Of a stretch of DNA of 64,000 nucleotides, positions 3,421 through 27,220 are shown piece by piece. Below the pieces are notes generated by a model. The model had not been told where the DNA came from and made no database searches. It saw nothing but the letters and a program-made list of their open reading frames with translations. The stretch is from the UHGV virus genome UHGV-0168042. One strand, 5' to 3'. Numbering within the stretch: the stretch's first letter is position 1; the number at the start of each line of letters is the position of its first letter. A program made the position numbers and the translations under genes. The stretch is from a virus.

Positions 3421-4397
3421 TTGTTCGGCACTCCCAATATCATTCGTGTTGTGTAGCCTACGCGGTCTTCAAAGTGCGCAACATTTTTTACTATCAGCTT
3501 ACGGGGCATTGATTCATCAATGCGGTTTTCCTGGTCATAGCGGTATACGATAATCTCTATCACCATCCCCGGTTTTATATCAGGATTGCCTGCGACTTCT
3601 ATATCCATTTTGGGGACGAGAGACAGCTGCATATTGCGAAGAGTTTCCATATCAGAGTCGGATATATAACGCACTGGGAGTGAGCTATCGCCATATTCGA
3701 CGTAGCCATCGGTCATGGAATACCCAACAAAACGATATTGATTCTTTGCTGTTGTCGCATGTTCCTGTTGGAGTAGGCGCATTTTGGACAAAGTGTATTC
3801 TGCTTTAGGGTTATTCCCCTCGTAGGTAAATGATGGCGTTTGCTTCATCAGATCAGCCAGGGTGTAAAAGTTAAATTCCCCCCGGCATACCCAACATAAT
3901 GCACCTTTGTCTCGCGCTATCTCCGAAAGCATTTTTGACGGTTTGTCACCGGCATTCAGATGATATGTAACTGCGCGTTTTAGCACGCTGCTGGTAATTT
4001 TAAGCTTGCCGGAATATGCCTTGAATATAGCGTCTGGTGTTTTGTTGGTATGTAAATTTGTGCGCGGGGAGGGGATCTTAAACCTGCGCACGTCTTCACT
4101 GACAGCAATAACGGTAACAACATCACCAGCCAGCATTGCAGACGTAACAAAGAAATCTGTTTTAAAAGTGCCTGCATTACCGTTTGGATCGCCCATTTCA
4201 GCCACCAGCGATGCACCGTATTTGGCTTTCCAGTCATCAATTACGGTGCCGGTAGCGTCATGAATTTCCAGTTTTAGCAAAGGGGCTTTGAGGCTGGTTT
4301 TTTCTACATATACTGCGGTAAAAATCCAGTCTCGTGGCACTTTGTTATCGTTAATGAGCACTGACTGTAGAAAATATTGTTGTAACTCCTGGGCCAC
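3417..4397 (-). CDS. Hypothetical phage protein, possibly baseplate/tail-associated
   Basis: 326-aa ORF overlapping the downstream spike-like gene by 4 nt; function inferred only from position. Confidence 0.35.
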   Translation of the reverse strand: MAQELQQYFLQSVLINDNKVPRDWIFTAVYVEKTSLKAPLLKLEIHDATGTVIDDWKAKYGASLVAEMGDPNGNAGTFKTDFFVTSAMLAGDVVTVIAVSEDVRRFKIPSPRTNLHTNKTPDAIFKAYSGKLKITSSVLKRAVTYHLNAGDKPSKMLSEIARDKGALCWVCRGEFNFYTLADLMKQTPSFTYEGNNPKAEYTLSKMRLLQQEHATTAKNQYRFVGYSMTDGYVEYGDSSLPVRYISDSDMETLRNMQLSLVPKMDIEVAGNPDIKPGMVIEIIVYRYDQENRIDESMPRKLIVKNVAHFEDRVGYTTRMILGVPNK

Positions 4398-4400
4398 TTA

Positions 4401-5168
4401 TCACCCCATAGATATCGAGGTTTCGGTAATAATACGTTTTGCGTCCAACTCCCATGCTGTGATCACGTCTGTAATCACACTTATCGGCGCTTGTGTGGCA
4501 TAAATACGCTCTTCTCCAATTGGTGCTGAAACATCCGTAAAGCCGACTTCTTTGGCATCCTGTATCGAGCAAATCAGCGGGACCGGGACACGAACAAGGT
4601 GAGTGGTTGCTTCAAATTGTGTACCTGTCATCAGGCGAAGCCGTGCGCCCAGCGAATTACACATCAGACTCATGGTCGCTTTATCAGTTGCCATTAACGT
4701 AACGTCATACGTCAGAATGGCCTGGGTGTATTCCAGTTCTGCTAAAGGCATTCCGGTATCTGGTTCGCAAAAACTGGCTACTTTTTTGCGGTCAATCTGC
4801 TGATCATCGTTGATATAATTGATATCCATAGTGCGTGAGATATTGACCAGGGGGAGAGCATCCCGGTTAATGTTCTGGTTTTCAGGTTTTCTCCCTTGCC
4901 CGGCATTTGCGCGACGAACTGCTTTAAGAAACTCGATCGCATTGTCGAAACGGGCCATATAGACACGCTCTGCTGGTGGACGATTCAGGAATGACGCAAA
5001 GCGTTTTTCTTCCGGCGCGGGGGCCACCAGTAAGATATCAGAAAAAATGTTGCTGATTAGCGTCGCAAACGCGTTATCCACGTTTTCAAAGCCCGTGGTC
5101 TGGAATTTTCCTGTGCGTAAGGTTTGCCATTCACCGGTTCGCGCCAGGAGGGTTTTATTTGAAGTCAT
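4401..5168 (-). CDS. Hypothetical phage protein
   Basis: 255-aa ORF in the same minus-strand operon. Confidence 0.35.
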   Translation of the reverse strand: MTSNKTLLARTGEWQTLRTGKFQTTGFENVDNAFATLISNIFSDILLVAPAPEEKRFASFLNRPPAERVYMARFDNAIEFLKAVRRANAGQGRKPENQNINRDALPLVNISRTMDINYINDDQQIDRKKVASFCEPDTGMPLAELEYTQAILTYDVTLMATDKATMSLMCNSLGARLRLMTGTQFEATTHLVRVPVPLICSIQDAKEVGFTDVSAPIGEERIYATQAPISVITDVITAWELDAKRIITETSISMG

Positions 5169-8068: not shown

Positions 8069-9249
8069 ATGTACTCCATGAACATTTTTTCAGCTTGTGC
8101 TGGTGGTGTTCCAGCCATGACAAGCGCATCAATGAACGCCTGCTTCTTCAGTGCGAACTGATCGGCAAGGCGTTGCTGAAGTTCCTTATTTTTCTGTTTC
8201 TCACGTTGCAAGGCCGCTTCTTTTGCAGCCGCCCGTTTTTTCTGTGCGTCTGACAACTTTCTGGCCCTGGTCAATTGGTCACGTAGCTTGTCGATATTGC
8301 CGTTGTCCTTTGCCAGTTTTGTACTTAAAGCTGCCTGGCGCTTCTGATAGAGCCTCCATTCGCGTTTGGCGGCTTCAACGTTTGTTTTACTGCTTCGATT
8401 GCGATTAAACTCCTTCTCGTCTTCTTTTGAGAAGTGTTTGGTTGTACGGCGGCGATCGTCACCAAATGCAATTTGCGTTGCAGCCTTTTGTAGCGCACGA
8501 GCAATACTCATTTGCCAACTGGCGGACTGTAACCGCGTCATTGAGTGGATCACGTGTTTACAGGCGACGCCTTGCAGCTTCGGGTTGCGAACTTTTGGAT
8601 AGGCGTATTCTTTTGGCGGGGCCAGGGCAAAGTTACCCGCAGTAGCGATGTAACGATACCAGTATTGATGACGACCACAGTCACAATCGAAAGACACTCG
8701 CCCGGCGCACAGTGATTTAGTGATTTTGAGAGCTGATTTATCGTCTTCTGCGATGTCATCGACCATCTGATCCCATTCTTCAAAGCGTATCCGGACGATA
8801 TGGTGCTGGTGGACGGATATATCCGATGCTTCTACGCGGATATTAATCACGTTGTGGCGAAGAGATACGGGGGTAGCTCTTTTGATACCAGATCCGTCAT
8901 CCACGGCGTTATTTGCACGCTTAATATCGATTGCCTGGCTGGATGCCACCAGCTGGGCGTATGTGATGCCAGCCGTCTTGCTGTCATATTTTTCGCGTGT
9001 TTTACTCCGTAGCTTTTCGAAACCTTTCAGGTCGTCTCGCGTGAAGAACGTGCCGCCTTTTTTCTTCCCTAACTTGAGAATATCTTCGGCGGATTTGTTC
9101 CTCAGTCCACCTGGCGTCAGCGTCCGGTGAGCTTGTCGGCGCTTACGGGTTTGTTCTTTCCTGATAATCTCGAATATACGCGTGAAGTCCTTAGAGGACA
9201 GACCGTCAGTGATATAGCGCCCGTCCTGGTTTTTCAGGAAATCAGGCAT
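8059..9249 (-). CDS. Hypothetical protein with SWIM-type zinc-finger-like motif and basic coiled-coil C-terminus
   Basis: 396 aa; FDCDCGRHQYW...CKHVIH fits a CxC-Xn-CxH motif; C-terminal 120 aa K/R/E/Q-rich. Confidence 0.45.
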   Translation of the reverse strand: MPDFLKNQDGRYITDGLSSKDFTRIFEIIRKEQTRKRRQAHRTLTPGGLRNKSAEDILKLGKKKGGTFFTRDDLKGFEKLRSKTREKYDSKTAGITYAQLVASSQAIDIKRANNAVDDGSGIKRATPVSLRHNVINIRVEASDISVHQHHIVRIRFEEWDQMVDDIAEDDKSALKITKSLCAGRVSFDCDCGRHQYWYRYIATAGNFALAPPKEYAYPKVRNPKLQGVACKHVIHSMTRLQSASWQMSIARALQKAATQIAFGDDRRRTTKHFSKEDEKEFNRNRSSKTNVEAAKREWRLYQKRQAALSTKLAKDNGNIDKLRDQLTRARKLSDAQKKRAAAKEAALQREKQKNKELQQRLADQFALKKQAFIDALVMAGTPPAQAEKMFMEYIKN

Positions 9250-13862: not shown

Positions 13863-14182
13863 TTTGACTCCCCCAGCGCGAATAAAGAATGCAGATTATC
13901 GCGTGAGTGGTGGACGACGAGTGATGGGAAAAGACTGTAGTTGTTCATAGTGTAGTGACTCCTTGCTTTCGGAGCCGCCATCGACTGTTCCACGGTCTGG
14001 TGGCGGCGCAATAAAGGCTGGAACACCGTGAGTCAACGGGGGCTTTTCAGCCACCTATATTGCACCGCCATAGGTATGGCGGGGGCAATAATACGAAAAA
14101 CTAAACAGTTTGTCTCAAAAAGTTGACCGGTGTGCCAATCGGTAGTGAATGTACATCGGAGAAATTTACAATTCAACTTAAA

Positions 14183-14212
14183 ATGTTAGAAAACTAATTT
14201 ATTAATTCAATC
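14183..14212. promoter_or_regulatory. Operator-like motif ATGTTAGAAAACTAATTTA (degenerate full site) overlapping the ref stop codon
   Basis: Near-identical 19-mer recurs in reverse orientation at about 43721-43740 and a 15-mer at about 33307-33323. Confidence 0.4.
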
Positions 14213-14772
14213 GCCATCTGATACAACGCCATTTCATCGGCATTGTGCCGTATGAAATCTGCTTTTCCGCCTATTTTTCCATCAGCATGAACAGGGACCA
14301 GCCAGGGATATTGTTCTCGGACCTCGGCTGGCGCTGCGTACTGGTGGTGCCATTTACACAAAGGGAGGACATATTTATGTGCGTTCTCTGCCGTTCTCCC
14401 GAAGATATGGTGCAGGGATACCACTGGGCTATGTTGCCCGTGAATATGGCAGGCAATGCAGGGGAGAGTACCGATAGCGGTCTGTATCCGGCGTTCATCG
14501 GCTGTGAGTGATCTGCCCTTCAGGCCGCGTGACGTGCGTGTTTTTTTGGGCGGAGCGGATACAGCTTTATCTTTTCTCCGCTGTTCATATTGCTTTGCTT
14601 TTTCAATTTTCTTTTGCCGATATTCAGGCGATGCGGCTTTTTCTCTCGCTCGCTGCTGCTGGCGTTGAGCTTGTTGAAGGCGCTTTGCCCTTTGTTCCTC
14701 TCGCCAGGCTGGGTCAGCCAATTTTTGCATGGCTTTTTGTCTCTGTTTCTCCCAATAGCTCTGTTTCTGCAT
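14194..14772 (-). CDS. ref: Ref-family recombination enhancement nuclease (HNH-like)
   Basis: 192 aa; CIACHIHGQHSPVVSLHHIFGRTAENAHKYVLPLCKWHH zinc/HNH-like motif; K/R/Q-rich N-terminus. Confidence 0.6.
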   Translation of the reverse strand: MQKQSYWEKQRQKAMQKLADPAWREEQRAKRLQQAQRQQQRAREKAASPEYRQKKIEKAKQYEQRRKDKAVSAPPKKTRTSRGLKGRSLTADERRIQTAIGTLPCIACHIHGQHSPVVSLHHIFGRTAENAHKYVLPLCKWHHQYAAPAEVREQYPWLVPVHADGKIGGKADFIRHNADEMALYQMAIELIN

Positions 14773-14820
14773 GATGGCTGCCTCTTACTTTTCAGCTATT
14801 TTTCTATGATTGATCAAAAC

Positions 14821-14850
14821 AGTTAGATATTCAAAATTGATTTTCTAACA
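14821..14850. promoter_or_regulatory. Operator-like inverted repeat GTTAGA-N16-TCTAAC upstream of ref
   Basis: AGTTAGATATTCAAAATTGATTTTCTAACA, about 50-78 bp upstream of the ref ATG. Confidence 0.55.
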
Positions 14851-15044
14851 CAAAACATTAATATCATTCCTGATAACTGTTTGGAGGACATGATGCTTAT
14901 AGCTTTAAGTGCGATCCACCAGCCATCTGTGAATGAGATTGGCCTGTTCTATGTGTTGTTTTTCGGGGCGTTGGCGCTACTTGAACTTGGTATTGAGCTT
15001 TTCGCAGTGCTTATGTTTTGCGTCACGATTTTGGGGAAATTTTG

Positions 15045-15668
15045 ATGGTGAAACGTGTTTTGAAAATTTACATCGCGGGGCCGATGACTGGTTATCCAGA
15101 TTACAACCGTGCTGCGTTTAATGCGAAAGCGAGCGAGCTGATGTCTGAAGGGCATATCGTTCTGAATCCAGCTGTGTTACCTGGTGGCCTTTGCCAGAGT
15201 GAATACATGGATATTTGCCTGGCAATGGTGCGTTCTGCTGATGCGATCTATCTGCTCAATCAATGGGAAGAATCGGTTGGTGCTCGCGCAGAGCACGCGC
15301 TGGCTGAAAAGCTGGGGCTGACTGTAATTTATGAGTCACAAACCAACATTGAATGCCAGGTTGCTCCGCATATTTACCGTGAACTGGTAAATGCGTTACG
15401 TGATGTTGCTATTGAATGTCACGGCACGGATCAGCTTCGCGCCCGCTTAAGCAAAACCCTTTCCAGTTACCTGTCTTTGGCTGAAGGATACAACCTCCGG
15501 CAGCGGAGAATGGTCAAATTAATCACGCGTTTATCTCAATCCCTGGCAAATGCCGAACCAACTAATCCGCTACCTAATGACGCAATGAATTATCTGAAGT
15601 CATGCGGCGTTGTTTCTGAAGATGCAGTTCGTTTTGTGGAGTTTATGTCTCAGAGGATGTCAGCGTGA
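15045..15668 (+). CDS. DUF4406 / nucleoside 2-deoxyribosyltransferase-like protein
   Basis: Internal Met start MVKRVLKIYIAGPMTGYPDYN; KIYIAGPMTG is the characteristic N-terminal motif of this family. Confidence 0.5.
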   Translation: MVKRVLKIYIAGPMTGYPDYNRAAFNAKASELMSEGHIVLNPAVLPGGLCQSEYMDICLAMVRSADAIYLLNQWEESVGARAEHALAEKLGLTVIYESQTNIECQVAPHIYRELVNALRDVAIECHGTDQLRARLSKTLSSYLSLAEGYNLRQRRMVKLITRLSQSLANAEPTNPLPNDAMNYLKSCGVVSEDAVRFVEFMSQRMSA

Positions 15669-15982
15669 GCTGGCGGGGATGGGGAAGGGCGGAAATCATG
15701 ATACTCCGCCAGTGCGCCGGGACTATGACAGTCGTGAGTATTGGGAGGCTGATCGGGCGTACCGGTAGTGCTGTCAGAACCAAAGCGCGGCAGCTGCGGA
15801 TCTGCATGATTCTGAAAGGAGACTTTCACCCGTCAGCCAAATACCGGCAGGGCGATATAGAACTGGCACGGCAGCTTCATCGGTGTGGTGTTCCCCGCCG
15901 TGAGATCGCAGAAAAACTCGAAATGCCCTTGAGCATGATTAATCAGTACGTTTATTTCGAAAGGAGAGTACATGAAGTCTGA
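15665..15982 (+). CDS. Small HTH-like regulatory protein
   Basis: 105 aa; overlaps upstream stop by 4 nt; ...GVPRREIAEKLEMPLSMINQYV resembles an HTH. Confidence 0.4.
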   Translation: MSWRGWGRAEIMILRQCAGTMTVVSIGRLIGRTGSAVRTKARQLRICMILKGDFHPSAKYRQGDIELARQLHRCGVPRREIAEKLEMPLSMINQYVYFERRVHEV

Positions 15983-16460
15983 AGGTTTAACGCCAGCACA
16001 ACTGGCAGAGCGTAACGCTGAGTATGTAACGGAAATTTCCCGACTTGAGAAAGAACGCTCGGCGCTGGCGGCGGAGAATGCTGGGCTGAAACATGCAATG
16101 GCTGTAACTCTTGAGCATGTGTCGGTCACGGATGCAGGGCAGGCCGGAGTTGCTGCAATGATTATCAACGATGCCCTGCACCACAGCGAAACTCCAGCCA
16201 CCGATGCTTTTCTGGCTGAAATTCGTGCGGAGGCTCGCAACGAGGGGATTAACTATACCGCAAGCCGTCTTGCTGCTGCTTTCAACCACGGATTTATCAA
16301 TAAGTCTTTACGTGAAGTTTTCGACGTTACACGCATGATTCTGTCAGCGAAAGAAGAGTTGGCTAATGAACCGCACCCGATTGATGGCCTGTCCGGTGAA
16401 TATGCGGAGAAATCCCTTGAAGAATGGGCGGAACAGATTCGCAAAGGAGCTGACAAGTGA
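15972..16460 (+). CDS. Ead/Ea22-like family protein (paralog 1)
   Basis: 162 aa; shares LAAENAGLK and PATDAFLAEIRAEA segments and C-terminal IRKG-x-x-K/Q end with paralogs at 16876, 17673, 22718, 23224. Confidence 0.5.
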   Translation: MKSEGLTPAQLAERNAEYVTEISRLEKERSALAAENAGLKHAMAVTLEHVSVTDAGQAGVAAMIINDALHHSETPATDAFLAEIRAEARNEGINYTASRLAAAFNHGFINKSLREVFDVTRMILSAKEELANEPHPIDGLSGEYAEKSLEEWAEQIRKGADK

Positions 16461-16867
16461 AGAAGATGATTTTTGTCGCGGCATTGTTGGTGAATATCCA
16501 ACAAGTGCATGCTTCAGCAGCTATTGTAGCCTCTACCGCCGCGACTACGGCTGCTGTAGCTGCTGCGAACTCTGCGAATATCGCAAACCAACAGGCACAG
16601 CGTGCTGCTAATGCATCAGCCAGCGTTCACTCAATCACCATTAAGAGCAGTAAGCAAAATCTGGGATTCATAACGTGCGGCACGCGTTCTAATGAAGCTG
16701 TAGGTTCACTTGGATGTACGGTATATGGGGGTAGTGAGAATAGAGAAATTCCATGGAAAACGTGGCCCGGATACGTTCTTGGCTCGAAGCTCCCGGCCAG
16801 TTATGAAGTAAACGCCGTATCGTTTGATCACTATAACGGCGTGGCAACGGTCTATTTTGCATATTGA
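16457..16867 (+). CDS. Secreted Ala/Thr-rich protein with signal peptide
   Basis: GTG start overlapping upstream stop; MKKMIFVAALLVNIQQVHA signal-like N-terminus. Confidence 0.45.
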   Translation: MKKMIFVAALLVNIQQVHASAAIVASTAATTAAVAAANSANIANQQAQRAANASASVHSITIKSSKQNLGFITCGTRSNEAVGSLGCTVYGGSENREIPWKTWPGYVLGSKLPASYEVNAVSFDHYNGVATVYFAY

Positions 16868-16875
16868 GGCTCCGC

Positions 16876-17676
16876 ATGAAATTCTCCAAATTTTCTGAGT
16901 TGGTGAATCGTATTTTGTTGAATCGTATTTTGTCCAACAACCACAGCCATCGTCGCGATATGGATGTAACGATCGTTGTTCATTCGCCTGGCAGCATTGG
17001 TTCAACACCCTCAGTTGAGGTTCAGTCAATTCACGCTGGTTTTGATTGGGATTCCGGGAAAGTGCTGATTTTCCCAGCACAGCCACTGACCACGCTAACA
17101 CCAGAACAGATTACTGATATTACTGATAGTGTGCGCAAAGGTCAGTCCTGGCACGCATATCAGGAATACAAGAAGCATCAAGAGCAGTTGGAAAAATTAT
17201 CGATTGAACTTGATACCGCAAAACAGCGCATTGCAGAGCTGGAGGGTAATCGCGCGGCGCTGGCTGCGGAGAATGCGAGACTGAAGGCGATATGTGAGGA
17301 TCGCCGCACGTTCATTATGAATGGCGTGCAGCTTGGTTTTATCAAGGTGCCAACAGTGGAAATAGATCCAGCTCTTGAAACAATTCGTATCGCCCTATCA
17401 CCACAAAAAACCACTCCTGCGACCGACACTTTCCTGGATGAAGTGAAGACTGAAGCACGCAAGGAGGGCGCTTACTTTGTGGCGAATAGAATGCTGGCTG
17501 CCTGGGAAGCTGGTTTTATTGATGATACTGCGAAGAACGCCGCGGATATTGCCCGGATGATTCTTACCTCTACTGAGTTTATGGCTAATGCGCGGGAAGG
17601 CGATTTTGACCGCTCATTCTCTGATGGTGTTCTCGAAGATATCGCTGAACAGCTTCGCAAAGGAGGCAGCCAGTGA
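16876..17676 (+). CDS. Ead/Ea22-like family protein (paralog 2)
   Basis: Track ORF from TTG 16864; ATG at 16876 preferred; contains AALAAENARLK and ends QLRKGGSQ. Confidence 0.5.
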   Translation: MKFSKFSELVNRILLNRILSNNHSHRRDMDVTIVVHSPGSIGSTPSVEVQSIHAGFDWDSGKVLIFPAQPLTTLTPEQITDITDSVRKGQSWHAYQEYKKHQEQLEKLSIELDTAKQRIAELEGNRAALAAENARLKAICEDRRTFIMNGVQLGFIKVPTVEIDPALETIRIALSPQKTTPATDTFLDEVKTEARKEGAYFVANRMLAAWEAGFIDDTAKNAADIARMILTSTEFMANAREGDFDRSFSDGVLEDIAEQLRKGGSQ

Positions 17677-18314
17677 GCGAGCTTTACTATCAGACGTTAC
17701 GTGAACGTTTTTCACCGAAACCAGCGCCTAAATGCTCTGTTTGTGGCGAGGAAATGTCAATGCAGCGCATATCTGGATCACATGTTGTTTATGCCTGTTC
17801 CGGCATGGAGGACGACGGATGCTTCAAAACTGGACGAACTTATGCTGACGAGCATTACAAAAAATCGCGCATAACAGTAGTTGATGATAGCGATCCTGAT
17901 GTGATTGAACTGCTGGAAGAGAACATGGAGATGGCTCTAACGCTTGAGAAGCTGCGTGTTGAGCTGGAGGCTGCTAAACAGCGTATTGCCGAATATGAAA
18001 GCAATTGCGGGGCGATGGTGGCGGAATGCCAAAGCAAAAAAGCAGCTCTTGAGGCAATTCTTAGCCATTGCCCAATTAATCATCCAGATATAGACATCGC
18101 ATGTATAGCGAACATCGCTCATAACGAATTAGGCGGGGCGAAAAGCACTACATCTAAGGCATACCTTGTAGAAATACAGGCACAAGGGGTGGAGGCATTC
18201 GCTTTGACGATGCGCGATACCGGAGATGATCCATTTTTTGATTCCGTTGCTTCTGCTTGCGCGGATGCAGCTGATAGGTTCGCTGCCCAGCTTCGAAAAG
18301 GAGGCAAACAGTGA
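17673..18314 (+). CDS. Ead/Ea22-like family protein with N-terminal zinc-ribbon (paralog 3)
   Basis: GTG start inside conserved junction; CSVCGEEM...YACSG...DGC; ends QLRKGGKQ. Confidence 0.5.
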   Translation: MSELYYQTLRERFSPKPAPKCSVCGEEMSMQRISGSHVVYACSGMEDDGCFKTGRTYADEHYKKSRITVVDDSDPDVIELLEENMEMALTLEKLRVELEAAKQRIAEYESNCGAMVAECQSKKAALEAILSHCPINHPDIDIACIANIAHNELGGAKSTTSKAYLVEIQAQGVEAFALTMRDTGDDPFFDSVASACADAADRFAAQLRKGGKQ

Positions 18315-18559
18315 GTAATACCGCACGACTACAGCTTGGTTTTTTACCGCTATCAAAAACCATCGTGTTGGCAAAAATGCGTGACTTAGGGGATGGAACA
18401 AAACGTCGTGTCGGCAATGATCGCGGTCGTGATGTAACCAACGAGGCCGCACAACTCGTTTGGCATCTAGTCATGGCTGAAGGCGGTGAAATTAATTGGG
18501 AGCTGGATGATGGTTCTCGCATGGTATTAAAGGCAGAAAAGCAGGAGCCACCACAGTGA
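18311..18559 (+). CDS. Hypothetical early protein
   Basis: 82-aa ORF, GTG start overlapping upstream stop. Confidence 0.4.
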   Translation: MSNTARLQLGFLPLSKTIVLAKMRDLGDGTKRRVGNDRGRDVTNEAAQLVWHLVMAEGGEINWELDDGSRMVLKAEKQEPPQ

Positions 18560-18849
18560 ATATCGACACCACGATAACGATTGATACGGCCCTAAATACC
18601 GGTCTGGCACTTCTCGGTTGGCTTTACATCATGTCCAGTACATGGCGATGGCTGGGTTCCATTTTCCTGAAACAGTGGAAAAAACGGCGCAAACAGGAAT
18701 TACGCCAGAAGGCATTAGAAGCGTTCTATGACGCATTTGAACTTAGCCGCATTGAACCAGGCACAACAGCCAGGATAGCGACAAAAGGCGACCTGATGAT
18801 AGTGATGTTCCGACAGGAGAAAGCAAATGGCAGCAAAGCGAATGACTAA
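18556..18849 (+). CDS. Hypothetical small membrane protein
   Basis: 97 aa; one hydrophobic segment (GLALLGWLYIMSSTW). Confidence 0.4.
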   Translation: MNIDTTITIDTALNTGLALLGWLYIMSSTWRWLGSIFLKQWKKRRKQELRQKALEAFYDAFELSRIEPGTTARIATKGDLMIVMFRQEKANGSKAND

Positions 18850-19051
18850 TCGCGAACTTGTTGATGCCGCGATTGAACTTGCTGGCGATTTTTATTCCAT
18901 GATGGGGTACACGCATCGCCCAGGCTTCAAATATTGGGAGTCTCCGCACCCGCAAGAGCAACGGGTATTTCAAATGGCCTGTCGCGCTTTTGAAGTTATT
19001 CGCGGTTCTGATGTGATGGACGCGGTTGCTGATTTGGAGGATGAAGAGTGA
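18827..19051 (+). CDS. Hypothetical early protein
   Basis: 74-aa ORF in the plus-strand operon. Confidence 0.35.
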   Translation: MAAKRMTNRELVDAAIELAGDFYSMMGYTHRPGFKYWESPHPQEQRVFQMACRAFEVIRGSDVMDAVADLEDEE

Positions 19052-19359
19052 ACACAATTAAAGAAATGCCGGTAGAACGTGATGAATATGGCTGCTGGAC
19101 ACATCCGGAGTATGAAAAGTTTTGCGCAGGTCGTGAATATATATCCACTGAGGAATTTGACGCCTGGATGAAGGAAAATAATCTTCAGTGGACTATTCGC
19201 AGTATGGATGAAGATGATTTTGATCTGGACGCAGCTGGTCCCGATATTGCCGCCTGGGAACCGGAGCGACCAGAGGGTGAAGGCTGGTTTGTTGGCTCTA
19301 TTCATGACACTGAAGATGGTCCAGTTTGTATCTGGCTGCGGGAGAAGGTTGCCGCATGA
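19048..19359 (+). CDS. Hypothetical early protein
   Basis: 103-aa ORF; acidic. Confidence 0.35.
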
Positions 19360-20048
19360 TCCAGACTATGCATGAAGTGAATTTATATAGCCGTATTGAT
19401 GGTTCTGGCTACAGAAACATATGGGTTGTTGGTGATCTGCATGGTTGCTACACCAGACTGATGTCCGAACTCCATCGTGTGGATTTTGACCCGGCGCAGG
19501 ATTTACTGATATCGGTTGGCGACCTTATCGATCGCGGTACTGAAAATGTCGAATGTCTGGAACTATTGCAGATGCCCTGGTTCAGGGCAGTAATGGGGAA
19601 CCATGAGCGGTTGATGCTTGATGCGTTAAGTCCTGATGGCAACGTGAATAACTGGCTAATGAATGGCGGACAATGGTTCTTCATGCTGGGCACTGATCAG
19701 GAAATATTAGCCAAGGCGCTGGTGGAGCTGGTAAAGCGTCTGCCATATATCATTGAGTTGAACACCGGGCATGAAACTATCGTTATAGCCCATGCCGACT
19801 ATCCAGGTGGAGAGTACCAGTTCGGTAAGGATGTGTCGTTTTTTGATGTTGTCTGGTCGCGCAGTCGCGTCGGTGATTCGATAGATGGCATTGGTGGAGA
19901 AATCACAGGCGCAGATCGCTTTATCTTTGGGCACACACCGGTACGAAGACCAAAAGCATACTGGAATCAGCACTACATAGACACGGGCGCGGTTTTTTGC
20001 GGAAATCTGACGCTAATGCAGGTGAAGGGAGGGCAGCTTAAAGTCTGA
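19356..20048 (+). CDS. Serine/threonine protein phosphatase (lambda PPase / PrpA-like metallophosphatase)
   Basis: Start ATG overlapping upstream TGA; [20 protein letters not shown] metallophosphoesterase motifs. Confidence 0.75.
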
Positions 20049-20074
20049 TCAAATCATTTACGCACTCAAAATCA

Positions 20075-20104
20075 CGTTAGAACATTGATTTTAGTTTTCT
20101 AACA
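20075..20104. promoter_or_regulatory. Operator-like inverted repeat GTTAGA-N16-TCTAAC upstream of the 20147 operon
   Basis: CGTTAGAACATTGATTTTAGTTTTCTAACA, about 45-70 bp upstream of the ATG at 20147. Confidence 0.55.
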
Positions 20105-20146
20105 TATTATTTTACCGATCGGAACAAAACAGAGTCGGTATGCATT

Positions 20147-21142
20147 ATGAGTGCAATAATCACCCCATATGTCGTAAATGAAACTGGTGTGGCTGTCTTT
20201 CCTGTAGATAAGCCCACCAGCAATTACATCGGCGCAGGACGCCGTTTTCTTATATCCCCATTGCCGCGTGAACAGGCTGAAAACACCCCTGATGGTGTCG
20301 TTGACCTGAATTATTCACTGGTTGCCAACCAGTCACTGGCACCCTTTTTTCAAAGTGAGCGTGTATTTAACGCGTTAGGTGGTGAGGATTCTCTCGTTCA
20401 CTGGGTTAGCACCAACATTCACGATTGCCAGGCGCATGATAAGCGCGATTGCAGCCACCAGCTAACCACCCATTTCTATAACGGTTCTGCCGTTCGCCTG
20501 TGCTGGAAGCATGATGCGGAATACATGATGAAGGGATACGGCAAGCTGGAAGACCAACTGTCACGGAATCGCGCCAACTGGATTATGAACTGGGCTGCCA
20601 GCGAGTTAAAACTTCCGCCAGATCGCGATCTGAGCATGGTTGAACTCACCTTTTGGGCCATTCGCCGGAATCTTAAAGACGAACTGCCTGATGAAGCTGG
20701 TCGCATTGCATTTTGTCAGCCAAAAACTGAAATCCCTACCGGTACGCTGAAAGAATCAGATATCACCTGGGAGCACAGTACCCGCGAGCTGGTGGACATA
20801 ACCGCAGAGCAGATCGTCAACCTGTCTGTAGATGAGGATTCCGGCCTGCTTTATATGCGCCGACCAAAAGCGGTCCTCGGTAAAAGCCCGGCTTATCTCC
20901 GGTTTGTGGTTTCTCGTCCGTGCATCGGATGCGGTGGCAAAGTTAACCACCCGTTCATGTACCGCGCCCGCTCGTTAAACGAACACGACCGCTGGGCTGT
21001 TCCTCTTTGCGATGACTGCGCCAGAAGCGCAGAAAACGATGTTCGGGCATGGGAAAAAGCACATGGCATACGCCTTTACGTAGCCGCTAACCAGCTTTTT
21101 GACTTCGCCATCGAGCGCGGAGTGATCACGTTCAATAACTGA
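20147..21142 (+). CDS. DUF968-like protein with C-terminal Ref/HNH-like zinc motif
   Basis: 331 aa; C-terminal CIGCGGKVNHPF...NEHDRWAVPLCDDC resembles the Ref HNH-like motif. Confidence 0.45.
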   Translation: MSAIITPYVVNETGVAVFPVDKPTSNYIGAGRRFLISPLPREQAENTPDGVVDLNYSLVANQSLAPFFQSERVFNALGGEDSLVHWVSTNIHDCQAHDKRDCSHQLTTHFYNGSAVRLCWKHDAEYMMKGYGKLEDQLSRNRANWIMNWAASELKLPPDRDLSMVELTFWAIRRNLKDELPDEAGRIAFCQPKTEIPTGTLKESDITWEHSTRELVDITAEQIVNLSVDEDSGLLYMRRPKAVLGKSPAYLRFVVSRPCIGCGGKVNHPFMYRARSLNEHDRWAVPLCDDCARSAENDVRAWEKAHGIRLYVAANQLFDFAIERGVITFNN

Positions 21143-21158
21143 TGAGGTGGATCAAAAA

Positions 21159-21839
21159 ATGAAAGAACGCGGGATGATTTTTAACGATGAGATGGTCAGG
21201 GCCATCCTCGAAGGAAGGAAGACGCAGACTCGCCGACCTGTAAAAAATGTCAGGGCCGATAACTGCCTAGTTATCCGTAAACCGACAAAGAAACGCAATG
21301 GTGTCTATACCCACGTTATGGATGCACCTGAACATGGTTTATGCCCGTTCGGTAACGTTGGTGATCGCATATGGGTCCGTGAGGCGTGGGCGATATTAGG
21401 CAATGAGGATGGTTGCAGTGTGGACTGGAACGACAACCTTTGTCGTGGCGATGAGAAGAACGCAGCAAGGATTTATCGGGCCAGTTGTGAGCAAAAGCCT
21501 GGTGATTACGGTTTGTGGTCGATACCCGATGATGCCGACTGGAAACCTCACACTGTGAATGAAAAGTTTGATGGCGGGTGGCGTCCATCAATTCACATGC
21601 CGCGCTGGGCTTCGCGTATTTTGCTGGAAATTACCGACGTGCGTGTGGAACGGCTGCGTGATATGAGCGAGGCAGATGCTAAAGCAGAAGGCGCATCTCC
21701 GGCGATGTACAAAATTACGCCGCCGGAAGCTGTTTATCGCGTTGGTTTTGGTGACATCTGGCGCAGTATTTACGGGCAGGATAACTGGCTATCTAACCCG
21801 TGGGTATGGGTAATCGAGTTTAAGCGCGTTCAGGAATAA
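21159..21839 (+). CDS. ASCH-domain-like protein
   Basis: Preferred ATG start with GAGGTGG RBS; N-terminal MVRAILEGRKTQTRR fits the GxKxxExR ASCH signature loosely. Confidence 0.4.
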   Translation: MKERGMIFNDEMVRAILEGRKTQTRRPVKNVRADNCLVIRKPTKKRNGVYTHVMDAPEHGLCPFGNVGDRIWVREAWAILGNEDGCSVDWNDNLCRGDEKNAARIYRASCEQKPGDYGLWSIPDDADWKPHTVNEKFDGGWRPSIHMPRWASRILLEITDVRVERLRDMSEADAKAEGASPAMYKITPPEAVYRVGFGDIWRSIYGQDNWLSNPWVWVIEFKRVQE

Positions 21840-21842
21840 ACC

Positions 21843-22721
21843 GTGAGTATGCATCAAGTTGTCAGCTTTTCAGGTGGACGAACATCGGCTTATCTCGTTC
21901 ATCTGATGGAAGCACAGCGAAAAGCTGGCGCTAGCGTCCATTTCATTTTTATGGATACCGGCTGTGAACATCCTCTGACGTATCGCTTTATTCGTGAGGT
22001 TGTGAAGTTCTGGAATGTACCGCTAACGGTGTTGCAGGTCGATATAAATCCAGAACTTGGGCAGCCAAATGGTTATACGGAATGGGAACCAAAGGATATT
22101 CAGACGCGAATGCCGGTGCTTAAACCGTTTATGGACATGGTTAAAAAGTACGGTACGCCATACATCGGCGGCGCGTTCTGTACTGACAGGCTAAAACTAA
22201 CCCCTTTCACGAAATATTGCGATGACCATTTTGGGCGAGGGAATTACATCACATGGCTGGGTATTCGTGCGGACGAACCCCGTAGGCTGAAACCGAAACC
22301 GGGCGTCCGGTATCTTGCCGAGCTGTCAGATTTTGATAAGTCGGATGTTATCCGGTGGTGGCGAAAACAACCTTTTGATTTGCAAATCCCGGAGCACCTC
22401 GGGAACTGTGTTTTTTGCATCAAAAAGTCAACGCAAAAGCTGGGGCTTGCATGTAAAGACGAACCAGGTCTGATGCGGGTTTTTAATGAACTGGTTACAG
22501 GCAAACACGTCAGGGATGGTCATCGCAGAACAGATAAAGACGTTATGTACCGTGGTCACCTGACGCTTGACGGGATTGCCAGAATGTATGCCGACAGCGA
22601 CTACAGAAATTTGTATCAGGCGATGGTGCAGGCCAAGCGGTTTGATACTGGTTCGTGTTCCGAATCATGTGAAATCTGGGGTGACCAATTGGAGTTGAAA
22701 TTCGAAGAGGTAGTGGCATGA
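21843..22721 (+). CDS. PAPS reductase-like PP-loop ATP pyrophosphatase family protein
   Basis: 292 aa; N-terminal SFSGGRTS PP-loop (SGGxDS-type) motif. Confidence 0.65.
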   Translation: MSMHQVVSFSGGRTSAYLVHLMEAQRKAGASVHFIFMDTGCEHPLTYRFIREVVKFWNVPLTVLQVDINPELGQPNGYTEWEPKDIQTRMPVLKPFMDMVKKYGTPYIGGAFCTDRLKLTPFTKYCDDHFGRGNYITWLGIRADEPRRLKPKPGVRYLAELSDFDKSDVIRWWRKQPFDLQIPEHLGNCVFCIKKSTQKLGLACKDEPGLMRVFNELVTGKHVRDGHRRTDKDVMYRGHLTLDGIARMYADSDYRNLYQAMVQAKRFDTGSCSESCEIWGDQLELKFEEVVA

Positions 22722-23227
22722 CAAACAAAATTGACTATCAAAAGCTTCGTGAAATTGCTGAAAAAACAAAAATTGCTGGTGAAGCGCCTGTAATGCCTTT
22801 CGATCAGCGAATTAATGCGCTTAACGATTTTATGAAGCACTTTTCGCCAGATATCGCGTTGGCATTATTGGATGAAGTTAAACGCCTGGAGGACACAAAT
22901 ATTGATGCTATGTGTCGAATTGCAGAGCTTGAGACTAATCTCGCGGCGCTGGCAGCGGAGAATGAGCTGGCTCGTAAGGCAGTTCAGGCATTCTGCGATG
23001 TTGTTGGCGACAACACCGAGGTTATCGCTGAGGTGGTTGGGCGAGATGGCGTTCTGGTTATTTTGGAGGCCATGAAGGCAACAGGAAATATGCCAGCCAC
23101 CGATGCTTTCCTGGCTGAAGTACGGGCGCAGGGCGTGGAGATGTTTGCGGAGTGTGCATACACGCTTGAACATCATGATCACGCAGTAGCCTTCGCCGCT
23201 GAGCTTCGCAAAGGAGGCAACCAGTGA
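22718..23227 (+). CDS. Ead/Ea22-like family protein (paralog 4)
   Basis: 169 aa; KIDYQKLREIAEK N-terminus, AALAAENELARK, PATDAFLAEVRAQG, ends ELRKGGNQ. Confidence 0.5.
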   Translation: MTNKIDYQKLREIAEKTKIAGEAPVMPFDQRINALNDFMKHFSPDIALALLDEVKRLEDTNIDAMCRIAELETNLAALAAENELARKAVQAFCDVVGDNTEVIAEVVGRDGVLVILEAMKATGNMPATDAFLAEVRAQGVEMFAECAYTLEHHDHAVAFAAELRKGGNQ

Positions 23228-23919
23228 GCAAGATTGACTATCAAGAACTGCGCGAGGCGGCGGAGAAGGCTACGAAAGGTAAGTGGGCTGTTGAATTCGA
23301 CGATGAGATTTACTCCACTGACGGCATAAACCATGAGCAAATAGCTATGGTGTTCAGTGAAAACGAATCTCGTGATGCTGAATTCATCGCCGCAGCCAAT
23401 CCGGCTACCGTCTTGGCGCTGCTGGATGAACGGGAAAGAAACCAGCAATACATCAAACGCCGCGACCAGGAGAACGAGGATATTGCGCTAACGGTAGGGA
23501 AACTGCGTGTTGAGCTGGAAGGCAAAGACAGCAAAATAGCCAATCTTACCGCCGAACGCGATGCTCTTCGTGAAGGTGAGATGGGCGACGCTAGGCATAG
23601 CAACACACGGGCCGCAGCTGATATCTACTTCCAACTGGTCGAGGAGTGCGAAATTCCTGCTGGCGGATCTCTGGTCGAGTACGTTGACGATATGCGCGAG
23701 AAGCTGGAAGCCGCAGAGAAGCGCATTGCAGAGTTAGAAAGTGGTTCTCAGGCACAAAAGTTAGTTGAAGCAATCATTGTTGCGATAGAAAACGAACAGG
23801 AAAGGCTTTTTGATGAAGATTACCTAATGGATTCGAAAGAATGCATTGACGTAATTCGTGAAGAAGTAAAGCGATGGAATGATTCCCGCGCCGCTGGCAT
23901 TCGCATCAAAGGAGAGTGA
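23224..23919 (+). CDS. Ead/Ea22-like family protein (paralog 5)
   Basis: 231 aa; GTG start in conserved junction; MSKIDYQELREAAEKATKGKW. Confidence 0.5.
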   Translation: MSKIDYQELREAAEKATKGKWAVEFDDEIYSTDGINHEQIAMVFSENESRDAEFIAAANPATVLALLDERERNQQYIKRRDQENEDIALTVGKLRVELEGKDSKIANLTAERDALREGEMGDARHSNTRAAADIYFQLVEECEIPAGGSLVEYVDDMREKLEAAEKRIAELESGSQAQKLVEAIIVAIENEQERLFDEDYLMDSKECIDVIREEVKRWNDSRAAGIRIKGE

Positions 23920-23920
23920 T

Positions 23921-24184
23921 ATGGCAACTTTGACAAAAAAAGAACAAGCATGGTTGAGCGAATTACAGGACGTTCTTGATCGCTGCCCATCACCGAAAAA
24001 AATTGGTTTTTACACCATTGGCGATAAAAGCATTTACCTGTATGACCTGCGCCGCATGGATGAAATCATGGAGGCTCTTGATAATCGTTCGTCAATGGAT
24101 TGGTGTGTTGCTGTTCATGATATGAATGCCGGATTTGATGAAAAGATTTTATTCCCCTCATCAGTTGAAAGCACTGCGGGTTAA
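23921..24184 (+). CDS. Hypothetical early protein
   Basis: ATG preceded by AGGAG; 87 aa (MATLTKKEQAWLSEL...). Confidence 0.4.
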   Translation: MATLTKKEQAWLSELQDVLDRCPSPKKIGFYTIGDKSIYLYDLRRMDEIMEALDNRSSMDWCVAVHDMNAGFDEKILFPSSVESTAG

Positions 24185-24194
24185 GGAGTAACAC

Positions 24195-25385
24195 ATGACC
24201 ACTATTACCAAAGAACGTATTGAATTGTTCATTAAAAATCCGCTTGAAAACGGGCTTACCCGTGGTGAACAAATGGAACTGGCACGGATTGCGCTGGCAT
24301 CGCTGGAAGCAGATCCAGTTAAACGAGTTAACTCAGATCAGATGCGCCGAGTCTGCTTAGAAGCTAATCGCCATTTAGATAAATATGACGCGATGGCGAA
24401 AGAGGTAAATAAGTTGCTTGGCCGCATCGCCCCGCCAGCGCCGGTAGTGCCGGAAGAAATCAGTACGACCCACACAATGCTGCCCGCCATGAGTGATCAG
24501 TTGATGGCGTTCGGTTATGTGAAGGGGTGGAATGCCTGCCGCGCGGCTATGCTTCATGCCGGAAACTTTCGGAAAAACGCGAATTCGTCAACCAATAATT
24601 TTCGGGATATTGCGGAAACGTCAACCAACTCTCCGGTAATTCCTGGTGAGGTGTTGTCCGCAATCCTGAAGTTTGCCAGAGTTCGTGCTGATTTCGATGA
24701 TTTTGACGGCGACAGACGAGGTATCGGTGATTGTCTGGATGAGGCTGAGCAAGAGCTTATCGTTACCATTAACAAATATGCCAGCCAGTTGGCAGCAGAA
24801 CCGATAGCGACTAATGACGTTCGAGAGCAGCAGACAGCCGTTCCACCAATACAGGCTGATGTCGCACAAGCAATTGAAAATCTCAAGCAGAAGTTAGTGG
24901 AATGCAATCGCTATAACTACTGCGCAGATGCAGTTAAAGGCGTAGAGGATGCCTGCCGTGCTGTTAGCTATAGCCAAGCCGACAATCAACCAGCATCTGG
25001 CAACCAGGCTGCCGAATCCAATCGCGGTAATGAGTGGACCGGCAATCCTGATATTGATAACGCCATCATCATGCTCGACCGCATAGATACGCTGGAAAAT
25101 TGCGATGATGACCGTATTGAGGCTGTTAAGGCTGTTTTGCGCAGACTGGCTGTCAACTCTCCGGTAACTCCGGATGGCTGGATAAGCTGTAGTGAGCGAA
25201 TGCCGGATACCAAAACAGCCGTTCTTGTTGCCGTGGAGTTTGACAGGAAAGGTGACTGGCGAATGAAATGGGCGACTTACATCCCTGGTCATCCTGACGC
25301 TAATGATGGGTGGATAATTCCTGGTGCGTCGTGGAAACCGTCACACTGGATGCAGCTACCAGAACCGCCACAGGAGGCGAAATGA
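24195..25385 (+). CDS. DUF551-like C-terminal domain protein
   Basis: 396 aa; C-terminal GWISCSERMP...WATYIPGHPDANDGWIIPG...SHWMQLPEPP resembles DUF551. Confidence 0.45.
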   Translation: MTTITKERIELFIKNPLENGLTRGEQMELARIALASLEADPVKRVNSDQMRRVCLEANRHLDKYDAMAKEVNKLLGRIAPPAPVVPEEISTTHTMLPAMSDQLMAFGYVKGWNACRAAMLHAGNFRKNANSSTNNFRDIAETSTNSPVIPGEVLSAILKFARVRADFDDFDGDRRGIGDCLDEAEQELIVTINKYASQLAAEPIATNDVREQQTAVPPIQADVAQAIENLKQKLVECNRYNYCADAVKGVEDACRAVSYSQADNQPASGNQAAESNRGNEWTGNPDIDNAIIMLDRIDTLENCDDDRIEAVKAVLRRLAVNSPVTPDGWISCSERMPDTKTAVLVAVEFDRKGDWRMKWATYIPGHPDANDGWIIPGASWKPSHWMQLPEPPQEAK

Positions 25386-25642
25386 TGGATGTAAAAGAGA
25401 AGGTTTTGCAGGTGATGCGTTCCCGTGCTGCCCTACAAGAGAAAGCTCTCGGCGGTGAATATCCATTCACGATAGCAACCTGGAATCTGCGGTTGGCAAT
25501 GGAGAAGGAATTTCCTGATGAAGAATGGCGTTCGGCAGATTTGCGCAAAATTCTTATGGAGCTGGCTAAAGACGGAACAGTATCCAAAGATACCCATGCC
25601 AGCCGGATTGGTCAGGCGGTATGGAGACTGGAGGTGAGGTAA
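25382..25642 (+). CDS. Hypothetical early protein
   Basis: ATG overlapping upstream TGA (ATGA); 86 aa. Confidence 0.4.
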   Translation: MMDVKEKVLQVMRSRAALQEKALGGEYPFTIATWNLRLAMEKEFPDEEWRSADLRKILMELAKDGTVSKDTHASRIGQAVWRLEVR

Positions 25643-25923
25643 TGGCTAACCTGCAACTTGCCGTTAAAGGTGAATACTTCGATGCCATGATTCGAGGGGA
25701 GAAAACGGAAGAGTATCGCCTGTGTAATGACTACTGGAATAAGCGCCTCGTTAACCGTAAGTATGACCGCCTGATTATCACAAAGGGATATCCGAAGCGC
25801 GAAGACTTCAGTCGCAGAATTGACGTCCCGTATAACGGATATGAAATAAAAACAATCACACATCCGCACTTCGGTGATAAACCGGTAAAGGTGTTCGCGA
25901 TAAAAGTGAAGATTAATAGCTAA
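25642..25923 (+). CDS. ASCH-domain-like small protein
   Basis: Start overlaps upstream TAA; GEYFDAMIRGEKTEEYR contains GxKxxExR signature. Confidence 0.4.
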   Translation: MANLQLAVKGEYFDAMIRGEKTEEYRLCNDYWNKRLVNRKYDRLIITKGYPKREDFSRRIDVPYNGYEIKTITHPHFGDKPVKVFAIKVKINS

Positions 25924-25946
25924 ATTTCAATTAACACGGAGTAATT

Positions 25947-26240
25947 ATGTGGCGCGGTAATAATCATGGCGGAAGCCAGATGATACTTACCGAATATACT
26001 TTCGACCACAAAACCAATAAATCACGTTCAGTATATTTGCTTCGGCACAATAGCCGCGTAAGAAATACCGTGCTGGAGCAAAATCTGACCGTCGAAATGG
26101 ATAATTTAGGAAGCTTCAAGCCAACAATATCGCTTGATGATTTTCCGTGTGGTTTAAGCGAAAGAGAAGCAATGCTGAAATTAGCAGAATGGTTACAAAG
26201 ATTAAGCATTGCTATTGAAGATAACTGGATTCAACCATAA
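25947..26240 (+). CDS. Hypothetical protein
   Basis: 97-aa ORF; start uncertain. Confidence 0.3.
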   Translation: MWRGNNHGGSQMILTEYTFDHKTNKSRSVYLLRHNSRVRNTVLEQNLTVEMDNLGSFKPTISLDDFPCGLSEREAMLKLAEWLQRLSIAIEDNWIQP

Positions 26241-26264
26241 TGAAAAACAGAAAGAAAGATTGCT

Positions 26265-26474
26265 ATGGCAACATTTAGTAAATTCGCAGTAATTATTATT
26301 TTATTAATTCCCCTCACTGTTACAGCAGGGGAACAGCAACATTGCACAAAAGAGAATGAACACCCTTTCATCGTTATTCAATGCGATGACGGAACGGTGA
26401 CTGTGGTTAATGTAAGAAATGACCGTGTAGCTGTTTGCCGTAAAGGCGAACCATGCAAGGAAATAAAACTATGA
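26265..26474 (+). CDS. Small secreted Cys-containing protein
   Basis: 69 aa; MATFSKFAVIIILLIPLTVTA signal-like N-terminus; 5 Cys in mature part. Confidence 0.4.
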   Translation: MATFSKFAVIIILLIPLTVTAGEQQHCTKENEHPFIVIQCDDGTVTVVNVRNDRVAVCRKGEPCKEIKL

Positions 26475-27220
26475 CAAGAATCACTAAAGAGCGTATTTCA
26501 GATATTATTTCCCGTATCGAAATGTATGGTCACGGTGCTGGATACACAGCAGATGAAGTATTGGAGCTTGCCAAAATAGCTTTAGCGCCTTGCAAGGATG
26601 GTAAAGCTATGACACTGATTGACTTGTTAGTGAAGGAATTATCTAAGGGGCGTGGATGGCCTGATGGAAAAGATTTTTGCCATCTATCCATTACGATGCC
26701 AGGTAGTAGTCGCGCTACGGTTCTTTTTGGTACGCGCCATAAAAATTACCAATCATCAAAGAATTATTCCATTGATGGCATTATTTGCGATATCAGTGAC
26801 CTTGATCGCAGTGCGTTTACATCGGTTGTCACTCGTGAACAGTATGAAGCAGCTCGCATAGCGTCTCAGAAAGTCAAGTCTGAAAGTAAGGCTTACAAGT
26901 TAGATTTTGAGCAATGGCTGGAGCAGCAACGCGGGGAAATCGATGTGGACTGCGGTTGTGTGTCTGCGGAAACATTCATGCACTGGTTGCGGGTAGCTTA
27001 TGAGGCTGGGAACCATCCGGTTCTTCCGGATAGTTCCCAACAAGCGCCCAGGAAAAGCGTAAAAACCACTCTGGAAAGAGGCTATCTTGAGGCCGCATTA
27101 AAGATTAAGCCGGGCCATACGCTAGGCGTCATTGATGCCATGTTGGTTCATGAAATGGCTAAGGCTTTATTGCCGCTGGTGGCTGATAAACATGAGGCGG
27201 GCCATGCCAACGAAAGCTGA
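26471..27220 (+). CDS. Hypothetical early protein
   Basis: ATG overlapping upstream TGA; 249 aa. Confidence 0.45.
   Translation: MTRITKERISDIISRIEMYGHGAGYTADEVLELAKIALAPCKDGKAMTLIDLLVKELSKGRGWPDGKDFCHLSITMPGSSRATVLFGTRHKNYQSSKNYSIDGIICDISDLDRSAFTSVVTREQYEAARIASQKVKSESKAYKLDFEQWLEQQRGEIDVDCGCVSAETFMHWLRVAYEAGNHPVLPDSSQQAPRKSVKTTLERGYLEAALKIKPGHTLGVIDAMLVHEMAKALLPLVADKHEAGHANES

Follow-up and report, generated by a model that had tools for sequence, protein, structure and literature searches.

A short sequence at the joints of accessory genes probably serves both translational coupling and recombination in temperate phages

The idea that phage genomes evolve by exchanging modules reportedly goes back to Susskind & Botstein (1978) and Botstein (1980), and the boundary sequences of Clark et al. 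(2001) are said to separate functional modules, not single accessory genes. Coupled gene pairs, in which a stop and a start codon overlap as ATGA or GTGA and a Shine-Dalgarno (SD) sequence lies inside the upstream open reading frame (ORF), are general in bacterial and phage operons. Here we describe a gene junction sequence, the class-1 block, that resembles both. It recurs in an array of five paralogous accessory genes (A to E) in a 64,000-nucleotide (nt) stretch of the virus genome UHGV-0168042, hereafter the window. Comparative sequence analysis suggests that the block is probably a dual-purpose junction, used for translational coupling and for short-homology recombination. Temperate phages of the lambdoid, P22-like, epsilon15-like and P1/D6-like kinds have it in common in their accessory operons ('ea' or exo-xis-like).

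Several described systems share part of this behavior. PMC3029335 and PMC3945230 credit Susskind & Botstein (1978) and, for HK620, Clark et al. (2001) with the proposal that short conserved boundary sequences are foci of recombination between phage modules. Like those sequences, the class-1 block is short, sits at gene borders between non-homologous flanks and coincides with homology breakpoints. It also carries a stop codon, a ribosome-binding site (RBS) and a start codon, occurs in several copies per genome, has intragenic counterparts and reaches P1/D6-like phage-plasmids. With ordinary coupled pairs it shares the 4-nt GTGA overlap and an AAGGAGG placed 6 nt 5' of the start within the upstream coding sequence, but an ordinary junction belongs to one gene pair, whereas here the same sequence joins dozens. 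The ea22 genes of lambda and Stx (Shiga toxin) phages are mosaics at the protein level, with a common N-terminal/coiled-coil part (Ead_Ea22) and unrelated C-terminal parts (PMC10834534). That work concerns protein blocks; the nucleotide islands that join the blocks, and the junction to the next gene, come from the present analysis. Relaxed homologous recombination by phage Rad52-like recombinases (Red-beta, RecT) is a proposed source of mosaicism (PMC2327257, PMC3945230), studied there on diverged homologies of hundreds of base pairs (bp), while some 20-35 nt are shared here. Integron attC sites and shufflons also border cassette-like units with a recurring short site, but the block comes without a dedicated recombinase, a structured site or a fixed crossover, and several unrelated blocks are used. 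No published description of the class-1 block or its peptide was found in a search that left Clark et al. 2001 and Gilcrease & Casjens 2018 (D6) outside its range.

The class-1 block places a complete stop, RBS and start within a few codons. Its form in the window is CG(C/A)AAAGGAGGCA(A/G)(A/C)CAGTGAG, and its wider form across phages is TTCGCCGCCCAGCTT-CG(C/T/A)AAAGGAGGCA(A/G)(C/A)CAGTGA. A preliminary description of this DNA had counted four junctions ending with the block; three copies stand (Table 1), and the fourth, at the end of paralog A, turned out to be degenerate. The 22-nt pattern matches exactly at 17656-17677 and 23207-23228 and with one mismatch (CGA for CGC) at 18294-18315, and it had no match in 100 dinucleotide-preserving shuffles; by chance, no copy would be expected. 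Each copy encodes the peptide ...(F)A(A/E)(Q/E)L-R-K-G-G-x-Q-stop. The same description had read the K-G-G codons as an RBS and the stop and start as overlapping, and all three copies agree: AGGAGG lies in those codons, 6 nt before a GTG that overlaps TGA (GTGA). The geometry of a coupled pair, an SD 5-9 nt before the start and inside the upstream ORF, is present at GTG 17673, 18311 and 23224, and the same GTG starts are used in the RefSeq annotation of HK620 and D6-like plasmids. Neighboring junctions of the operon (x1, x3, x4) have the same stop/RBS/start architecture in different sequences. A near-perfect SD (AAGGAGG) is spelled by the six codons that close the upstream gene (R-K-G-G-N/K/S-Q), and because this SD lies inside the ORF and next to a GTGA overlap, a ribosome that ends the upstream gene could start any downstream gene. 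From this arrangement we infer that translation of the downstream gene is coupled to that of the upstream gene.

RNA structure and frameshifting were considered at the same junctions. A possible hairpin at 17652-17676 and 18290-18314 pairs GCUUC (the Q-L-R codons) with GAGGC (the SD), and UCGCUG with CAGUGA (the stop and start); its GCUUC/GAGGC stem could mask the RBS. This 5-bp hairpin is the sole recurrent structure among the folds of five junctions, which gave z-scores of -0.66, -1.53, -3.63, -1.10 and +0.59, and joints of the DUF2737 type do not have it. The first two z-scores, those of the two copies that form it (B-to-C and C-to-DUF7446), are weak, and a conserved RNA structure is not established. 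Programmed frameshifting was considered on the sequence, which has no slippery heptamer before the stop (CGC AAA GGA GGC AAC CAG TGA).

The same block joins many different genes. Scanning IMG/VR with CGNAAAGGAGGCNNNCAGTGA returned at least 120 contigs, and in the matches listed flank similarity stops directly after CAGTGA, with many different sequences on either side. When 300 nt per side were clustered at 117 sites among those matches, 27 upstream and 32 downstream classes appeared in 76 combinations. EaE/Ea22 mosaics, whose N-termini are of at least five kinds, occur among the upstream partners beside members of unrelated families, such as DUF2737 proteins and an unknown 79-aa protein. The partners on the downstream side include Ead_Ea22, DUF7446 and DUF7739 proteins, a PAPS reductase and a methyltransferase-like protein. 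Loci were also fetched through DUF7446 homologues, independently of the block. Of these 79 loci, 42 carry it with at most three mismatches, and the NTGA overlap is found in every one of 46 distinct upstream contexts. Several codons in this set are near-fixed (Leu CTT in 20/23, Arg CGC in 28/34, Lys AAA in 35/36, Gly GGA in 39/42), so the identity lies at the nucleotide level and is more than conservation of a peptide. More distant DUF7446 homologues have a sister form, ...CTTCGCAAAGGAGCCGTGCTATGA (AAQLRKGAVL-stop).

The block is found in a wide range of phages. Its 38-nt consensus matched 334 phage records, among them lambdoid siphoviruses, HK620, Sf6, epsilon15, phiV10, many Stx phages and P1-like phages, and about 1 in 6 complete E. 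coli genomes (847 of 5,426) contain a block word of at least 28 nt. HK620 carries it at the hkaH/hkaG junction, and P22 has a variant at eaE/orf45, RKGVQS-stop with an ATGA overlap. In lambdoid phages the block lies just 3' of recombination genes (Sak4 and SSB in HK620, erf in P22); in the window the block array adjoins the Ref nuclease gene.

Linkage between neighboring sequences drops at the block. At 126 non-redundant sites the adjusted mutual information (AMI) between adjacent 150-nt intervals is 0.19 across the block versus 0.55-0.81 elsewhere, and the probability of finding the same downstream class given the same upstream class is 0.18 across the block versus 0.64-0.77 for all but one other adjacent pair. 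We then mapped breakpoints between positions 14000-27000 of the window and D6 together with eight D6-like plasmids. Within 15972-23919, 16 of 38 distinct breakpoints fall in three block kinds that cover 9.3% of the interval (binomial p ~1e-7), and the remaining ones are mostly at gene ends. On both counts, non-homologous flanks on either side (27 x 32 classes, 76 combinations) and coinciding breakpoints (AMI 0.19; 16/38), the block behaves as a boundary sequence.

Individual crossovers can be read in the relatives. Paralog C is missing from three of the D6-like plasmids (L206, L207 and L211); there one block connects a B-like gene to DUF7446, and in it the matches from either side share 36-37 nt. 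D6 orf91 combines the N-terminal part of A with the C-terminal part of D, with the joint in the PATDAFLAE block, and a decayed junction block connects it to a C-like gene. A/B chimeras joined in the AALAAENA block occur in L211 and L208. Three-way alignments place the switch points inside the shared stretch, with no novel bases. The preliminary description had proposed the junction as a recombination boundary for shuffling early genes and had named gene content between junctions in related phages as a check. That content varies greatly (paralog C present or absent, A/D and A/B chimeras), and together with the partner classes and the AMI of 0.19 it supports the proposal.

These footprints point to homologous recombination as the source of the crossovers. 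The same ~20-35 nt recur at numerous non-allelic sites and across many co-resident phages, and would form a substrate for host RecA or for phage single-strand-annealing recombinases. Recombination in the block would swap, insert or delete whole genes, and each product would regain a stop, an RBS and a start. Two intragenic blocks (AALAAENA and PATDAFLAEVRAQG) probably work likewise and yield chimeric EaE/Ea22-like proteins, and a second junction, AAGIRIKGE-stop-TGA-N-ATG, probably plays the same role for genes 3' of Ead-type paralogs. Between copies with unrelated flanks the exact identity run has a median of 21 nt, and it reaches at least 23 nt in 38% of pairs and at least 31 nt in 14%. For efficient pairing, Red-beta is reported to need a segment of at least 23-27 bp and RecA one of at least 31-34 bp (PMC3945230), which puts the block at the bottom of the range used by phage annealing proteins.

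Runs are shorter between copies that lie in the same genome. There the exact run has a median of 11 nt and 1 of 17 pairs reaches 23 nt or more, compared with a median of 19 nt and 29% at 23 nt or more between genomes; the within-genome pairs (window 17656, 18294, 23207; L010, L027, L102, L204, L205, L210) are few and not independent. The shorter runs would limit self-deletion and might reflect selection against it.

The window's five paralogs are probably products of such shuffling, not a recent tandem array. They had been described as an Ead/Ea22-like array. C, D and E exceed the gathering score of 27 bits for Pfam PF13935 (Ead_Ea22) and A and B have no PF13935 match, although phrog_368 is matched by all five. 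The C-terminal part of B is 55% identical to P22 EaE over 160 aligned positions, with the last ~90 residues near-identical. This split and the EaE-like part of B make the array a mix of Ead_Ea22 members and EaE-like mosaics. In a five-way alignment paralogs B-E show 22-38% protein identity to A, and their DNA is alike only in islands, 20-50 nt long and with 61-88% identity. There are four kinds of island: the junction (51 nt, four copies), AALAAENA (49 nt), PATDAFLAE (40 nt) and an N-terminal IDYQxLRE island in C, D and E. The internal segments that had been thought common to all five are more restricted. AALAAENA is present in A, B and D, and PATDAFLAE in A and D with an altered version in B; both are diverged in C and absent from E.

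A recent tandem duplication, with the junction likeness as a remnant of the duplicated unit, is exceedingly improbable as the origin of this array. Head-to-tail pairs of Ea22-like genes do exist at B-to-C and D-to-E, and the N-terminal codons that follow the GTG are alike too (family D8). Uniform alignable similarity over a unit is nevertheless missing: with protein identities to A as low as those above and DNA likeness in islands only, the candidate was rejected. Unrelated genes also separate the paralogs, whose closer kin sit in other phages (P22 EaE for B, Stx phages at 92.5% identity for the D/E module). We also see very little chance that the block is the target of a site-specific cassette system, whether of the integron attC or shufflon type or cut by a homing nuclease. 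Crossovers occur at three or four blocks of unrelated sequence at least, some of them intragenic, and the same block functions across phages that differ widely in gene content. What does recall such a system is a short conserved site bordering cassettes, with HNH-type genes nearby (the Ref-like and DUF968 genes of Table 1), but the array holds no integrase or invertase gene and no site-like structure was found in the block beyond the 5-bp hairpin (z -0.66 and -1.53). Such systems rely on a recombinase of their own that acts at one structured site with a fixed crossover point; neither was found, and this candidate was rejected as well.

Another account would have the blocks kept for a protein motif and a strong RBS and start only, with random illegitimate recombination and selection for working joints (the Hendrix model) leaving them as marks of viable joints and not of favored recombination. 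We consider it unlikely. The core of the block is indeed an SD plus a start codon, and distant relatives retain CGCAAAGGAG and NTGA with a different spacer (RKGAVL-stop-ATGA, RKGVQS-stop-ATGA), both in its favor. Yet the Leu CTT and Arg CGC codons are fixed where they have no ribosome-binding role, and identity often reaches 10-15 nt 5' of the SD, into codons of otherwise unrelated proteins. Proteins that are not homologous carry the RKGGNQ tail, DUF2737 among them; in HK620, DUF2737 ends in RSGKK-stop. Half-block joints in L141 and D6 orf99, and convergence of an unrelated IS21 istA/istB joint on the same pattern, speak for this account; the switch points inside shared sequence with no novel bases, and the use of intragenic blocks with no ribosome-binding role as crossover sites, speak against it.

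Several considerations also weigh against the dual-purpose junction that we favor. Its recombination role rests on comparison and its coupling role on geometry, and the need for an SD and a start could by itself partly maintain the conservation of the block. The IMG/VR set was picked by the block pattern itself, a bias that the DUF7446-based set corrects for one downstream gene only. The plasmids used for the breakpoints are related by ancestry, so the events are not all independent. A median run of 21 nt is below the published pairing minima, and many pairs of copies would recombine poorly. Half-block joints exist, including an ASCH-like gene fused to GGGGGCAACCAGTGA in L141 and a similar case at D6 orf99/orf100, which means that microhomology or illegitimate events also occur. 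A more far-reaching reading, a universal adapter grammar, seems doubtful to us: selection would keep the nucleotides of junctions and islands so that anti-host accessory genes or segments could be swapped in frame, and expressed at once, between unrelated temperate phages; copies within a genome would be kept different against self-deletion, and Ref or annealing proteins might assist.

Other joints and tails related to the block take diverse forms. An istA/istB joint of the IS21 family (...LMRKGGLQ-stop / MTDIHTLERL...) in IMG/VR contig 2588254055_000003 (L033, 2778-2798; class u17/d22) fits CGNAAAGGAGGCNNNCAGTGA, and is a convergence on the stop/RBS/start architecture in an unrelated element. 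DUF2737 proteins end either in their own tail, ...NAMWRSGKK-stop (HK620, L202, 2893-3057, followed by an EaE-like gene), or in ...NAMWRKGGNQ-stop joined directly to a downstream cassette, at many IMG/VR loci. The latter form looks like the result of a deletion that ran from one junction-like sequence to another and removed the EaE-like gene. Phage D6 (L001) has no canonical copy of the block. Its versions at 4332-4370, 4983-5022 and 8300-8330 are decayed (RTGNKQ-stop), have a longer tail (...AALLRKGQSCLRPNFEGKR-stop) or keep the 3' half, GGAGGCAACCAGTGAGC, in another frame.

The accessory region contains further islands of the same nature. A class-2 junction ends the Ead-type paralogs and has the form GCTGGCATTCGCATCAAAGGAGAGTGA-N-ATG (AAGIRIKGE-stop-TGA-N-ATG) across loci; in the fetched loci it occurs in 66 distinct upstream/downstream combinations, with an AMI across it of 0.16. 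We scanned all fetched loci for 18-mers with at least five unrelated contexts on both sides. The scan, in which the class-1 block had 21 x 21 context classes, recovered both junction classes and the islands PATDAFLAEVRAQG, CAALAAENAG, YQALREAAE, KRIAELE and TVLALLDELE, as well as islands where the DUF551 domain borders on other sequence, one of them a third junction, HWMPLPEPPQEVK-stop-ATG. The accessory region is by this measure made of short conserved islands between unrelated segments. In the window, an EaA/DUF551-like gene (24195-25385) has islands near 24626-24648 and 25154-25200 and at the gene end, 25385, which stand in unrelated contexts in other phages. They comprise GWNACRAAML; TPDGWISCSERMP, which lies at the edge of DUF551; and, at the C-terminus, the junction HWMxLPEPPQE(V/A)K-stop with GGAGG.

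Table 1. Paralogs, junctions, internal blocks and neighboring genes in the window
Feature	Position	Strand	Remarks
Paralog A, 162 aa	15972-16460	+	EaE-like mosaic C-terminal part (PATDAFLAEIRAE...EQIRKGADK-stop); phrog_614 and phrog_368
Paralog B, 270 aa from first possible start (relatives: MKFSKF start)	16864-17676	+	tail AEQLRKGGSQ-stop
Paralog C, 213 aa	17673-18314	+	Ead_Ea22, 49.5 bits
Paralog D, 169 aa	22718-23227	+	Ead_Ea22, 30.0 bits; start overlaps stop of PAPS-reductase-like gene (ATGA)
Paralog E, 231 aa	23224-23919	+	Ead_Ea22, 101.9 bits; tail AAGIRIKGE-stop
Class-1 copy 1, B to C	17642-17692, core 17656-17676	+	last B codons, AGGAGG, GTG of C over TGA
Class-1 copy 2, C to DUF7446	18280-18330, core 18294-18314	+	CGA variant, KQ in place of NQ
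Class-1 copy 3, D to E	23193-23243, core 23207-23227	+	
Degenerate junction CGCAAAGGAGCTGACAAGTGA (RKGADK-stop)	16440-16460	+	AAGGAG and GTGA overlap kept, rest diverged
Class-2 junction GCTGGCATTCGCATCAAAGGAGAGTGA-T-ATG	23890-23923	+	E stop, SD in K-G-E codons, ATG of next gene (phrog_1714)
Internal block AALAAENA, copy in A	16032-16080	+	crossover site, A/B chimeras in L208 and L211
Internal block AALAAENA, copy in B	17227-17275	+	
Internal block AALAAENA, diverged copy in C	17982-18030	+	61% identity to reference copy
Internal block AALAAENE, copy in D	22916-22964	+	
Internal block PATDAFLAE, copy in A	16194-16233	+	crossover site, A/D joint of D6 orf91
Internal block PATDTFLDE, copy in B	17416-17455	+	
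Internal block PATDAFLAE, copy in D	23093-23132	+	
Ref-like RecA-dependent HNH nuclease (P1 ref homologue)	14194-14772	-	adjoins hypervariable array, faces away
136-aa ORF, signal-peptide-like N-terminus, phrog_8805	16457-16867	+	between A and B, cassette 3' of degenerate junction
DUF7446 gene	18311-18559	+	downstream partner of junction copy 2
DUF968 protein, HNH-type	20147-21142		

The window is a D6/P1-like phage-plasmid with an accessory region like the early-left 'ea' region of lambdoid phages. Its closest phage is Escherichia phage D6, at 95% identity but with just 47% coverage, and PLSDB has about 1,000 plasmids, each of roughly 92 kb, with matches to parts of it. The array is bounded by the Ref nuclease and DUF4406 genes on one side and by a pmgU-like gene on the other. 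Positions 15000-25500 were compared with 50,697 phages, 72,556 plasmids and 5,426 complete E. coli genomes, and not one record covers at least 80% of them, which makes this combination of cassettes unique in those collections. The stretch 21843-23526 (PAPS-reductase-like gene, paralog D and the start of E) matches its counterpart in many Stx-converting lambdoid phages at 92.5% identity, and its position inside D6/P1-like flanks indicates exchange between phage types. The 136-aa ORF between A and B, which has no Pfam match, moves with parts of A and B to a different array position in L211. Ref is a stimulator of RecA-dependent recombination; that the Ref nuclease helps shuffling at short blocks is speculation.

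The class-1 block is a clear case of the long-proposed boundary-sequence route to phage mosaicism, not a new kind of element. As a test case it is abundant and clean, having ~20-35 nt of defined sequence, hundreds of phages, dozens of partner combinations and mapped crossovers; with the sequence and the crossovers in hand, the question of how mosaicism arises becomes directly testable. The block also provides an annotation rule for the GTG, non-ATG, starts of these operons. Shuffling at such joints would explain the high variability of the accessory region in D6-like phage-plasmids, and the entry of lambdoid genes into P1-like plasmids.

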